Assembly (NCBI GenBank): GCA_037143235.1
Contig: JBAWZC010000001.1
Coordinates: 1,132-65,131 of the forward strand
Origin: Candidatus Berkelbacteria bacterium
GTDB taxonomy: Bacteria > Patescibacteriota > UBA1384 > XYA2-FULL-43-10 > 1-14-0-10-43-13
Reading direction: 5' to 3'
DNA length: 64,000 nt
Shown piece by piece: positions 2,837 to 32,046 of the stretch. The position numbers and the translations under genes are program-made. The notes beneath the pieces were generated by a model. The model made no database searches and was not told the DNA's origin. It saw nothing but the letters and a program-made list of their open reading frames with translations. Position 1 is the stretch's first letter; every line of letters starts with the position of its first letter.

Positions 2837-2866
2837 TGTCATTCCGGACCACGATCCGGAATCTAT
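2837..2866. repeat. Solo palindromic element of the TGTCAT family (tgtcattccggaccacgatccggaatctat).
   Basis: TGTCAT terminus followed by an 8-bp stem (attccgga/tccggaat) and a ctat tail, as in the inverted repeats flanking the GIY-YIG genes. Confidence 0.55.
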
Positions 2867-13151: not shown

Positions 13152-13530
13152 TGTCATTGCGAGCTATTGGGTTTTCCAAAGCGCGGCAATCTATCATGCT
13201 CTACCATGAAAAACTATTACACCTACATTTTATCTAACTATGATAATTCTGTTCTGTATATTGGGATTACCAATAATTTAGTTCGTAGAACACACGAGCA
13301 CAAAAACAATTTAATCGAGAGTTTTTCATCCAAATACAAAGTCCACAAATTAGTTTATTTCGAGGAAACCAATGACGCAAACTCTGCAATTTCACGAGAA
13401 AGACAATTGAAAGCTGGTAGCAGACAGAAAAAACTCGATTTAATAGCAAAAAACAATCCTGAATTTAATGATTTGTATCCAGAACTATTATAATGATAGA
13501 TTGCCGCGTCGCAGACTCCTCGCAATGACA
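13152..13530. mobile_element. Palindrome-flanked GIY-YIG cassette, divergent family member: 45-bp left IR, GIY-YIG gene, 37-bp right IR
   Basis: Left IR 13152-13196 tgtcattgcgagctattgggttttccaaagcgcggcaatctatca and right IR 13494-13530 tgatagattgccgcgtcgcagactcctcgcaatgaca. The terminal 12-14 nt are exact reverse complements (tgtcattgcgag/ctcgcaatgaca; gcggcaatctatca/tgatagattgccgc). Confidence 0.7.
13206..13493 (+). CDS. GIY-YIG nuclease family protein (small URI-domain/YhbQ-like, 95 aa)
   Basis: YTYILSNYDNSVLYIGITNNLVRRTHEHK matches the GIY...YIG motif with the conserved Arg and Glu. The ORF occupies the interval between the two IRs almost exactly; the TTG track start lies inside the left IR. 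Confidence 0.75.
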   Translation: MKNYYTYILSNYDNSVLYIGITNNLVRRTHEHKNNLIESFSSKYKVHKLVYFEETNDANSAISRERQLKAGSRQKKLDLIAKNNPEFNDLYPELL

Positions 13531-13563
13531 GACATTAGGCAGCCATTGCAACAATCCCCTGCT

Positions 13564-13688
13564 TGTCATTGCGAGCTATTGGGTTTTCCAAAGCGTGGCA
13601 ATCTATCATATCCTTTTTTTACTATTGCGGCCCAACCACGGTATCAAAGCACGATAGATTGCCGCGTCGCAGACTCCTCGCAATGACA
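13564..13688. repeat. Empty miniature copy of the same element (MITE-like): left IR and right IR separated by only 44 bp
   Basis: 13564-13608 is near-identical to the left IR at 13152 (one mismatch) and 13653-13688 is identical to the right IR at 13494. No ORF lies between them. Confidence 0.7.
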
Positions 13689-13756: not shown

Positions 13757-13790
13757 CAAAAAAATCTCCCCACTGGGGAGATTTTTTCTT
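13757..13790. terminator. Bidirectional intrinsic terminator (AAAAAAATCTCCCCACTGGGGAGATTTTTTC)
   Basis: Perfect 8-bp GC-rich stem flanked by an A-run and a T-run. It terminates the 16S transcript (minus strand) about 150 nt after the rRNA 3' end, and any plus-strand read-through from the GIY-YIG cassette. Confidence 0.7.
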
Positions 13791-13937: not shown

Positions 13938-15524
<1,587 letters not shown>

Positions 15525-21321: not shown

Positions 21322-21678
21322 TGTCATTCCCGCGCAGGCGGGAATCCACCAATAGCCACCTCCTAATTTTTATTCAAGTAAGTCTTTCCACCCAGGATTG
21401 CTTTGCTCAATCAACTTTATTTTCCAAACCCTATTCCACTTTTTAAGACGCTTTTCTCTAAGAATTGCCTCAGTCACATCAGATGTTTCTTCGAAGTAAA
21501 CAAGTTTTTTGGCTCCATATTTTTCAGAAAAACCGTTTGTAATTTTATCTTTATGCTCATTCGTTCGCTTCTCTAAATTTGATGTCACCCCCACATACAA
21601 TGTTCCATTCAAACGACTTGCCAATATGTATACAAAGTATTTTTTCATTTGTGGATTCCCGCCTGCGCGGGAATGACA
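21322..21678. mobile_element. Palindrome-flanked GIY-YIG cassette: 28-bp perfect IRs (tgtcattcccgcgcaggcgggaatccac at 21322-21349; reverse complement at 21651-21678)
   Basis: The IRs are exact reverse complements and each is itself a hairpin (ttcccgcg/cgcgggaa). The GIY-YIG ORF fills the space between them. Confidence 0.75.
21370..21648 (-). CDS. GIY-YIG nuclease family protein (92 aa)
   Basis: YFVYILASRLNGTLYVGVTSNLEKRTNEHK GIY-YIG motif; about 80% identical to the copy at 28464-28742 and about 45% to that at 13206-13493. Confidence 0.75.
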   Translation of the reverse strand: MKKYFVYILASRLNGTLYVGVTSNLEKRTNEHKDKITNGFSEKYGAKKLVYFEETSDVTEAILREKRLKKWNRVWKIKLIEQSNPGWKDLLE

Positions 21679-22524: not shown

Positions 22525-22570
22525 TGTCATTGCGAGCACTGAACTTATCGAAGGGTGCGGCAAGGTATCA
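22525..22570. repeat. Solo TGTCAT-family element (tgtcattgcgagcactgaacttatcgaagggtgcggcaaggtatca) just upstream of fba
   Basis: Same termini (tgtcattgcgag...gcggcaa..tatca) as the left IR of the 13152 cassette. Confidence 0.55.
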
Positions 22571-28339: not shown

Positions 28340-28418
28340 ATTTACCTCCATCAGTTAATTTTCATTGATGGACTATCTGCCATCACCCAATTTACTTTGT
28401 CATTCCCGCACCCTTATT

Positions 28419-28773
28419 TGTCATTCCCGCGCAGGCGGGAATCCACAAAAAGTCAACTCATAATCATTCAGTCAAATCTTTCCATCCAGGATTATTTTCT
28501 TCAATCAATCTTATTTTCCAAATTCTATTCCATTTTTTAAGACGTTTTTCTCGAAGTGATGCCTCGTGAATATCTGTCGTTTCTTCAAAATAGACAAGTT
28601 TGCTTACTCCGTATTTCTCAGAAAAACCATCAGCGATTTTATCTCGGTGTTCGGTTGTCCGTTTCTCTAAATTTGATGTTACTCCGGTATACAATGTTCC
28701 GTTGAAATGGCTCGCCAGTATGTAAACATAATATTTTTTCATTTTGTGGATTCCCGCCTGCGCGGGAATGACA
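28419..28773. mobile_element. Palindrome-flanked GIY-YIG cassette with the same 28-bp IRs as the 21322 copy (28419-28446 and 28746-28773), plus an adjacent partial IR at 28398-28413
   Basis: IRs are identical to those of the 21322-21678 element. Inserted between gap and tpiA. Confidence 0.75.
28464..28742 (-). CDS. GIY-YIG nuclease family protein (92 aa)
   Basis: YYVYILASHFNGTLYTGVTSNLEKRTTEHR; paralog of the 21370-21648 gene. Confidence 0.75.
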   Translation of the reverse strand: MKKYYVYILASHFNGTLYTGVTSNLEKRTTEHRDKIADGFSEKYGVSKLVYFEETTDIHEASLREKRLKKWNRIWKIRLIEENNPGWKDLTE

Positions 28774-30615: not shown

Positions 30616-32046
30616 TTAATCAAAAAGATCCTTTACCTGTTTTTTTCGATGATAGGATATAGCAAAACGATGCGCCTCATCCCTTGCTCGTATCAAGACT
30701 CTTTGCAATGTTTGGTTTGTTTTAATAAATACCGCAATTTTATCATCAGAAAATCGCAAATCATTTCTTTTTCTCTCGGCGCCCTTTGCAATTGCCACCA
30801 CGGGGATGTCTTTGCCAAGCTCCGTAAGCAATAACTTCACAATATTCAACTGCGATTGTCCCCCGTCCAAAACGATCAAATCAGGCAGTGGCCAATCATT
30901 TTTCATTCTTCGCTCAATCACATCTCTCATCCAATAAATATCACCTACTCGCTTGTCATCCCCAGATTCACTATTTTTTGTCATCCCCGATCCAGTCGGG
31001 GATCCATTAATAGCTTTCCCCACTTCACTAAAGTTACGAGGGGCAGGGTGGATTCCCGCCTCCGCGGGAATGACAGAAACGGGAAACTGTTTTCCGTTTT
31101 CTGTTTTCTGTAAACTAAACATCCGATAATCGTCCTTGCTTGCTTTTCCGTCTACAAAAACGACCATCGAACCAACGACATTTTTTCCAGATATATTCGA
31201 AATATCATAACACTCGATTCTCTTGAAGCCAGCGACTGATTGATCGACCAATTCATCCGACAAGCCCACCCCCACATCTCGAAGGTGCTGTAGCGCTCTG
31301 ATCTTGTCCCGAACCAACGCTGCCTCCTCGTATTTTGATTTGGCACTTAGTTTCGCCATCTCCTTTTCAAGGTCGGCAAAAAGCTTCTGTTTTTTGTTTT
31401 GCAAATATTTGACCAAATAGCCAATGTTCTTCTGGTAATCTTTTTCGTCAGTAAAATCGGCGCAAGGCGCACTACAAACTCGGATCTCGCCGAAGATACA
31501 TGGCCTTTTTTGCCTTTGCTGAGACGCAAACTTTGTCTTGGAACAGTCACGATATGGAAAGATCTTGCGTAGATATCTCAAAGCATTTTTCAGCAAATCG
31601 CCTGAAGGATAAGGGCCAAAATATATCGCCGATCGATCAGAAAAATCCACATTTCTCGATCGTACCAGTTCAACCATCGAGAACGATCCAGCTCGGTCAA
31701 CTTGAGATTTAGAATTTAAAATTCTACGAGTTATCTTTATCACCAAAAAGCTTTTGTCGTCCTTGGCTCTGATATTATATTTCGGCTTAATCTTGTTGAT
31801 CAGCTCTGCCTCGAGCAAAATTGCTTCAATCTCAGAATCAGTCTCAACGGTCACGACCTTGTCGGCTAGCTCCACCATCTGAATGATGCCAACCCCTCTG
31901 TCTAGTGTACTCAAAAAATATTGACGGATGCGATTGCGCAAGTTCTTTGCTTTGCCGATATACAAAATCTTCCCTTTGACATCCAGAAACTTATAGACGC
32001 CAGGAGAACTTGAGATTCCACTAAAATTTATCGAACTTTTATTCAT
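30616..32046 (-). CDS. uvrC: Excinuclease ABC subunit C (UvrC), short form ending right after RDEAHRFAISYHRKK (no C-terminal (HhH)2 domain), with an in-frame insertion of about 50 aa
   Basis: N-terminal GIY-YIG (GVYKFLD...ILYIGKAKNLRNRIRQYF), a Cys cluster, UVR domain, RNase-H-like ECYDISN...YRMF and DIYWMRDVIERR...LIVLDGGQSQL...RDEAHRFA. The TGTCAT-family hairpin plus heptamer repeats at 30943-31095 are translated in-frame (…IPAEAGIHPAPRNF…). Confidence 0.8.
   Translation of the reverse strand: MNKSSINFSGISSSPGVYKFLDVKGKILYIGKAKNLRNRIRQYFLSTLDRGVGIIQMVELADKVVTVETDSEIEAILLEAELINKIKPKYNIRAKDDKSFLVIKITRRILNSKSQVDRAGSFSMVELVRSRNVDFSDRSAIYFGPYPSGDLLKNALRYLRKIFPYRDCSKTKFASQQRQKRPCIFGEIRVCSAPCADFTDEKDYQKNIGYLVKYLQNKKQKLFADLEKEMAKLSAKSKYEEAALVRDKIRALQHLRDVGVGLSDELVDQSVAGFKRIECYDISNISGKNVVGSMVVFVDGKASKDDYRMFSLQKTENGKQFPVSVIPAEAGIHPAPRNFSEVGKAINGSPTGSGMTKNSESGDDKRVGDIYWMRDVIERRMKNDWPLPDLIVLDGGQSQLNIVKLLLTELGKDIPVVAIAKGAERKRNDLRFSDDKIAVFIKTNQTLQRVLIRARDEAHRFAISYHRKKQVKDLFD
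30943..31095. repeat. TGTCAT-family palindromic elements plus a (CTGTTTT)n heptamer repeat embedded in-frame in uvrC
   Basis: Contains cttgtcatccccagattcac, ttgtcatccccgatccagtcggggatcca (stem ccccga/tcgggg), gtggattcccgcctccgcgggaatgaca (the 28-bp IR with one substitution) and ctgttttccgttttctgttttctg. Confidence 0.65.

Follow-up and report, generated by a model that had tools for sequence, protein, structure and literature searches.

Our study reports on a hairpin-flanked nuclease gene in the genome of Candidatus Berkelbacteria, within a 64,000-nucleotide stretch of DNA that we refer to as the window. Positions 13152-13688 very probably comprise an SRM-ssn-SRM cassette, in which a GIY-YIG nuclease gene lies between two inverted hairpin arms, followed by a gene-less head-to-head dimer of the same motif; to judge from its sequence, the 95-aa protein of the cassette would, with the same high probability, be a member of the Ssn family. 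The locus is a new example of a known, published system; it represents neither a new mobile element nor a new class of element, and the finding matters in that it places the Ssn/hairpin system in a CPR (Berkelbacteria) genome and reveals an arm type, with a long hairpin, that falls outside the published search motif.

In many bacteria the gene ssnA, which encodes a 94-aa protein with a single GIY-YIG domain, is flanked by NTS (CGTCATTCCCGCGMAVGCGGGAATCYRG), an oriented Neisseria repeat that extends dRS3, and by a wider form of it, the Ssn-related motif or SRM (Chenal et al., Nat Commun 2025, PMC11893778). The Ssn family is defined there by the CDD model cd10448. The SsnA enzymes of N. meningitidis, N. 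elongata, N. wadsworthii and Wolbachia bind the hairpin as single-stranded DNA only and cut it a few nucleotides upstream; SsnA is inactive on duplex DNA, on RNA and on the reverse strand, does not bind RNA, and depends critically on the GTC that precedes the palindrome and on the C that follows (PMC11893778). The NTS-ssnA-NTS arrangement was likened by these authors to an insertion sequence and compared with REP/RAYT systems (PMC11893778). The same repeats have been described as CGTC/TGTC-tagged REPs, including dRS3 of Neisseria and RPE-4/6 of Rickettsia; the CGTC REPs have AT-initiated stems of 8-9 bp, loops of 4-5 nt and 3-nt CCA/CTA tails, and occur mostly as head-to-head dimers, with some units within repair genes and no enzyme reported (Di Nocera et al. 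2013, PMC3733652).

Layout of the cassette and the gene-less copy

The features of the locus are as follows.

13152-13197, plus strand: left hairpin arm of the cassette, a putative SRM in the long (type-2) form, with its TGTC tag at 13152-13155
13156-13160 with 13186-13190, plus strand: lower stem of the left arm, ATTGC paired with GCAAT
13164-13181, plus strand: apical stem-loop of the left arm, with the C and the tail TATCAT at 13191-13197
13206-13493, plus strand: putative ssn gene for the 95-aa GIY-YIG protein, from ATG 13206 to the stop codon TAA at 13491-13493
13493-13530, minus strand: right hairpin arm (its repeated 36 nt at 13495-13530), with a short apical stem-loop
13531-13563: spacer of 33 nt between cassette and gene-less dimer, without similarity to either neighbour
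13564-13609, plus strand: left arm of the gene-less head-to-head dimer, with 1 mismatch to 13152-13197 (CGCGG/CGTGG)
13610-13652: spacer of the gene-less dimer, 43 nt (43-44 according to the arm end chosen), without a gene
13653-13688, minus strand: right arm of the gene-less dimer, identical to 13495-13530 at 36 of 36 positions

Read on the plus strand, the left arm is TGTCATTGCGAG-CTATTGGGTTTTCCAAAG-CGCGGCAATCTATCAT (13152-13197) and the right arm is ATGATAGATTGCCGCG-TCGCAGACTC-CTCGCAATGACA (13493-13530), which read forward on the minus strand becomes TGTCATTGCGAG-GAGTCTGCGAC-GCGGCAATCTATCAT. An earlier description of this DNA, made from the letters alone and here called the sequence-only reading, had located the repeats and described their termini as reverse complements; every repeat was found where it had been placed, and on alignment the outer 12-nt termini (TGTCATTGCGAG and CTCGCAATGACA) are perfect reverse complements. 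The inner 14-16 nt of the arms (CGCGGCAATCTATCAT and ATGATAGATTGCCGCG) are likewise complementary. This complementarity is confined to the tag, the lower stem and the tail, while the middle of the left arm (18 nt) is unlike that of the right arm (10 nt). Folded on itself, each arm presents an unpaired TGTC, the ATTGC/GCAAT lower stem, an apical stem-loop set off by a small internal loop, and then a C and TA(TC); the apical stem-loop is TTGG-gtttt-CCAA plus an extension in the left arm and GTC-tgc-GAC in the right. All four type-2 arms read TGTC-ATTGC...GCAAT-C-TA and carry the unpaired [ACT]GTC tag, the AT-initiated palindrome and the 3' C of an SRM. The 12-nt terminus occurs five times in the 64-kb window, compared with 0.34 copies expected.

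Inverted termini of 12-14 nt that bound a single gene, together with a short gene-less copy that has the same ends, could be read as a classical TIR transposon with a MITE-like deletion derivative, the GIY-YIG protein acting as a transposase on double-stranded ends. We regard this as improbable. The restriction of complementarity to tag, lower stem and tail and the self-folding of each arm argue against it, as does the covariation of the stems across loci described below, which fits a hairpin and not a duplex binding site; moreover, the characterised homologues leave double-stranded DNA alone. A search for a target-site duplication found no direct repeat in the flanks (...CCACCCGTT/GACATTAGG... 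and ...CCCCTGCT/AATTTAGG...), and the cassette contains no transposase, its sole ORF being the 95-aa nuclease. The spacer of the gene-less dimer gives a local alignment score of 10 against the ssn gene, at chance level (shuffled mean 8.8; 117 of 500 shuffles score as high or higher). This spacer is unrelated to the gene, and thus only the arms are common to the full and empty copies. The empty copy had been taken for a MITE-like derivative, but its spacer is no recognisable deletion remnant of the gene; the arm pairs had been taken for transposon-type ends, but they are inverted copies of an oriented single-stranded DNA hairpin motif. The boundaries assigned to the element were correct and fit the published biochemistry of the Ssn family.

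Under the SRM-ssn-SRM reading, our analysis suggests that the gene-less dimer is most likely one further substrate copy for the nuclease, in the head-to-head form that is commonest for these repeats. That an arm pair can exist without the gene, as had been proposed, is borne out here, by a type-1 dimer elsewhere in the genome and by many gene-less copies in metagenomes, and the idea that the nuclease acts on such copies agrees with the published cutting of many dispersed hairpins by the Ssn family (PMC11893778).

The whole gene-less dimer folds stably (-25.6 kcal/mol, z=-4.4). It lies between convergent genes, murE and 16S rRNA, a site typical for REPs, and REPs can be transcribed (PMC3733652). 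The arms could on these grounds act mainly in RNA, as hairpins for the termination, processing or stabilisation of transcripts between murE and 16S, or the empty copy could be a small structured RNA gene; we consider either very unlikely. Rfam searches, at the gathering threshold and at E<=1, returned no family over 13152-13688, and the weak matches belong to another structure, the terminator hairpin at 13759-13787. SsnA does not bind RNA, and the same motif is also found within a coding region. The sequence-only reading had itself allowed for a conserved structured RNA at the empty copy; in addition to the Rfam result, the orthologous locus of the nearest relative has no empty copy.

The 95-aa protein and its family

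The product of the 95-aa ORF matches PF01541 (E=5e-15, residues 3-76) as a single domain without an extra DNA-binding domain, and is identical to the protein of a public gene call (P0001) on a 144,911-bp contig of Candidatus Berkelbacteria. The TTG at 13167, from which the ORF had been drawn, does sit inside the left arm as claimed, but translation from it merely reads the hairpin; the real start is ATG 13206, which is used by the public gene call and whose methionine is the point from which all homologues align. Identity to the other two GIY-YIG proteins of the window, first put at about 45%, was measured at 49-50%. Residues Y7, Y18, R28, H32, E65 and N84 are invariant across 24 aligned homologues, and we take them, from established knowledge of GIY-YIG enzymes, to be catalytic. 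The predicted structure (pLDDT 94) has the GIY-YIG fold, with the UPF0213 protein 1ZG2, Slx1 and the N-domain of UvrC as its best solved matches. A sequence search of the PDB found no solved relative and no Ssn structure there, and a search of NCBIfam found no specific family model for the protein.

Comparison with a 94-aa ORF of N. gonorrhoeae, inferred to be SsnA, gives 43% identity (E=1e-27) for the type-2 protein, and 51% for the type-1 protein of the cassette at 21322-21678, described below; the type-2 protein is 53% identical to a Wolbachia homologue, the gene of which has the same flanking hairpins. That these two ORFs are orthologues of the assayed enzymes is taken from species, length and flanks; the gonococcal one comes from a gonococcal chromosome in a plasmid collection, where it is the single 94-aa homologue between canonical NTS repeats. 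No named Neisseria match appeared among the matches listed in a search with the type-1 protein. The closest homologue of the type-2 protein is P0002 (70% identity), followed by P0004 (63%); the arms beside P0004 have a different type of stem, so that similarity between proteins is no simple guide to the type of arm. From these homologies we infer the enzymatic specificity of the 95-aa protein, which would be that of the assayed enzymes.

Many GIY-YIG enzymes are homing endonucleases, and the type-1 protein gives a score of 25.8 bits against a group I intron endonuclease model, below the cut-off of 56. A free-standing homing endonuclease with a double-stranded target in gene-less alleles is nevertheless scarcely credible, with a protein of only 95 aa that has no DNA-binding domain, a setting without intron or intein, and hairpin repeats and multi-copy paralogues that are foreign to homing. 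On the evidence given, the homing endonuclease was rejected, as were the transposon with its MITE and the structured RNA gene.

Relatives of the Ssn-like proteins form a very large family spread over phyla; at E<=1e-5 the type-2 protein has at least 1,209 matches and the type-1 protein at least 7,969. A genome scan yielded 80 loci, at 47-62% identity, in CPR groups, Firmicutes, Cyanobacteria, Proteobacteria, Wolbachia, Francisella and others, and the 77 of them with enough flank were surveyed for hairpins. A forward tag and hairpin lies within 150 nt upstream of the homologue at 52 of these 77 loci and a reversed one within 150 nt downstream at 48; 37 loci have both, and five control regions scored. 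Left and right arms are non-identical in 34 of the 37 two-sided loci, and 44 of 100 arms beside homologues are longer than 26 nt. In an alignment of 24 arms, G2, T3 and C4 of the tag never vary, nor do A5 and the T and C that follow the stem, while the stems differ in sequence among arms and covary. Compensatory changes are seen in six of seven pairs and 97.6% of cells are paired, a level reached by none of 500 shuffles and compared with 12-52% in slid controls, although this signal is partly circular for the outer pairs because only arms with five or more nested pairs had been admitted to the alignment.

The orientation of the arms varies between hosts. At the N. gonorrhoeae ssnA locus (L209, 480-1000) the tags face the gene, with GGGAATGACG upstream and CGTCATTCCC right after the stop codon, whereas the tags face outward in the window and at most other loci; the architecture of the cassette is therefore not uniform.

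Hairpin types in this genome and in metagenomes

The Candidatus Berkelbacteria genome holds three ssn genes and two hairpin types. Besides the type-2 locus, the window contains the following features.

21322-21678, minus strand: type-1 cassette, arms TGTCATTCCCGCGCAGGCGGGAATCCAC at 21651-21678 (minus) and 21322-21349 (plus), with a putative ssn gene of 92 aa at 21648..21370
28419-28773, minus strand: second type-1 cassette, arms at 28746-28773 and 28419-28446, with a putative ssn gene of 92 aa at 28742..28464
22525-22569, plus strand: solo degenerate type-2 arm, with GCAAG for GCAAT and a weakened lower stem
30954-30978: partial arm in an insert in uvrC
30979-31006, plus strand: hairpin TGTCATCCCCGATCCAGTCGGGGATCCA in the same insert
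31049-31075, minus strand: hairpin TGTCATTCCCGCGGAGGCGGGAATCCA in the same insert

Both type-1 cassettes have arms built as a short perfect hairpin, TGTC-ATTCCCGC-gcag-GCGGGAAT-CCAC, which almost equals the NTS consensus; those at 21322-21678 are canonical NTS-like arms. The published search pattern for SRMs, HGTCWYN(0-2)YYVSBRHN(0-5)WNVSBRGN(0-2)RNCYNB, has four hits in the window, compared with 0.17 expected, all of them type-1 arms; it has no match among the arms of 13152-13688. The type-2 arms miss it because their hairpins are 35 or 27 nt long and contain an internal loop. As SRMs of 20-50 nt are allowed (PMC11893778), the miss reflects a limit of the search pattern, and the type-2 arms are still admissible. 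The long-hairpin arm type thus escapes the published motif, which catches just 14 of the 100 arms beside homologues. Measured against the CGTC REPs, the stem and loop dimensions are fitted by the type-1 arms and not by the type-2 arms, while the tail and the head-to-head dimer fit.

Further hairpins are scattered through the genome. The solo arm at 22525-22569 lies 10 nt upstream of the start of a minus-strand gene; the sequence-only reading had asked whether it pairs with a right arm elsewhere, and a search found none within several kb. An intergenic tagged hairpin with a fourth type of stem (TGTCATTCCGGACCACGATCCGGAATCTA, 2837-2865, plus strand) stands alone, without a clear partner. About 6 kb past the end of the window, a gene-less type-1 head-to-head dimer (L208, 2316-2381) has a spacer of only 10 nt and an AATGACA arm that overlaps the start codon called for secA. 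The uvrC gene (30616..32046, minus strand) carries an in-frame insert of about 49 aa made of tagged hairpins (window 30954-31075), which translates as ...VIPAEAGIH...; the region has 54 residues here and 5 in the solved UvrC chains 3c65 and 2nrr. Directly outside the right arm of the cassette at 28419-28773, a half-arm duplicate (GCGGGAATGACA) occupies 28398-28412, and similar tandem half-arms, GGAATGACAC and then GGAATGACGC, are found at a Wolbachia locus (L059, 1826-1860). These duplicates hint at a recurrent by-product of a process acting on the ends.

The type-2 arms have their tag, lower stem and tail in common with a widespread metagenomic class of hairpins with variable self-complementary apical inserts. 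A metagenome scan for these parts recovered, among the matches listed, 80 loci with 85 copies and 61 distinct apical inserts. Among the same listed matches, 33% of the inserts form a perfect stem of at least 5 bp, compared with 3% of shuffled inserts; two of the 80 loci have a GIY-YIG gene adjoining the hairpin, and 11 hairpins have the inverted partner CTCGCAATGACA 22-65 nt downstream. In about 20 contigs from sediment metagenomes (L093-L165), a type-2-like hairpin, TGTCATTGCGAGGAGCGAAGCGACGTGGCAATCTATC, is accompanied by conserved flanks (ACCAAGTTGCAATCA ... CTATTGAGATTGCTTCAC) and may be part of a larger conserved unit; the GCGAAGC motif within it is known as a very stable DNA mini-hairpin.

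Possible mobility, proposed mode of action and known counterparts

The nearest relative retains the order tRNA-Ile, murE, terminator and 16S, but a clean empty site was sought there and, where the cassette and dimer would lie, about 920 nt of unrelated DNA was found instead. A second assembly of the organism (L206) is identical to the window across the element and 99.95% identical over 21 kb. All 12 differences between the two fall in a stretch of about 100 nt of the 16S rRNA gene (14969-15070), which suggests a strain mixture or a collapsed variable region.

REPIN-RAYT systems combine GTAG-tagged REPs with an HUH tyrosine transposase, and REPINs are copied as whole doublets. SRM dimers could in a similar way be non-autonomous mobile units, copied through a single-stranded intermediate by Ssn acting in trans, with the cassette as the autonomous or master copy; we hold this to be possible but doubtful. 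It is favoured by the empty copy, which retains the same combination of left and right arms at 98-100% identity, by gene-less dimers of both hairpin types in the genome, by the in-frame dimer within uvrC, an insert that the solved homologues lack, and by the nearest relative, which has the same synteny with neither cassette nor dimer; the spread of the protein family across phyla at 50-60% identity and the likeness to insertion sequences remarked on by the authors of PMC11893778 point the same way. Against it, neither the nearest relative nor the two assemblies of the organism offer a precise empty site or an insertion polymorphism, no target-site duplication is present, and what the full and empty copies have in common is their arms and not their spacer, whereas REPINs copy the doublet whole. 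The protein is moreover a lone nuclease, and we know of no strand-transfer activity in such an enzyme. On this evidence, transposon-like movement of the dimer or cassette is plausible but unproven, here as in the literature.

For the cassette and dimer as SRMs, a model of nuclease action can be put forward. When the DNA turns single-stranded, for example in replication, repair or DNA uptake, each arm would form a hairpin whose TGTC tag stays unpaired on the 5' side and whose stem is directly followed by a C. If it behaves like its Neisseria and Wolbachia homologues, the nuclease would bind this oriented hairpin, cut a few nucleotides 5' of the tag, and leave duplex DNA, RNA and the opposite strand untouched. 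Cuts at the left arms are predicted on the plus strand, just upstream of 13152 and 13564, and cuts at the right arms on the minus strand, just past 13530 and 13688; as the enzyme would cut 5' of tags that lie on the plus strand in left arms and on the minus strand in right arms, all four predicted cuts would fall just outside the arm pairs. The role of the system may be the control of incoming single-stranded DNA or the spread of the repeats. CPR bacteria depend on DNA uptake, and the handling of incoming single strands is offered as a suggestion only.

More speculatively, Ssn and its hairpins might constitute a second, GIY-YIG-based counterpart of REPIN-RAYT, in which dimers are copied as units in trans and two co-resident nuclease/hairpin specificities have recently been active, as the near-identical arms, the in-frame insertion in uvrC and the absence of the cassette from the nearest relative could suggest. 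If true, the 'missing enzyme' of the CGTC-tagged REPs would be supplied. A single 64-kb stretch with three nuclease paralogues, two cognate hairpin types, gene-less dimers and the uvrC insert is a compact test bed for the system.

Among known systems, the locus resembles insertion sequences and MITEs in its short inverted ends around a gene and its miniature gene-less copy, but has no target-site duplication and no transposase, and its ends are covarying hairpins and not duplex binding sites. With REPIN-RAYT it shares a single gene between inverted hairpins, gene-less doublets and the recognition of a single-stranded DNA hairpin with an unpaired tag; it differs in having a GIY-YIG protein instead of a Y1 HUH transposase, a TGTC instead of a GTAG tag, a doublet spacer that is not conserved between copies, and a mobility that is unproven. 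The likeness to the CGTC/TGTC REPs extends over the tag, the AT-initiated stem, the 3-nt tail, the head-to-head dimer and the unit in a repair gene (uvrC), whereas the hairpin is longer here and an associated enzyme gene lies between the arms. Compared with Ssn/NTS, the type-2 arms stand apart by their lower stem of 5 bp, their internal loop and their additional apical stem-loop, the tags point outward here and inward at the N. gonorrhoeae gene, and the host, Candidatus Berkelbacteria (CPR), belongs to a group that the main text of PMC11893778 does not mention. The likeness to Ssn/NTS lies in the size and make-up of the protein (about 94 aa, one GIY-YIG domain), in the inverted, oriented hairpins that flank its gene, with their [CT]GTC tag, AT-initiated palindrome and C after the stem, and in the many gene-less copies of these hairpins.
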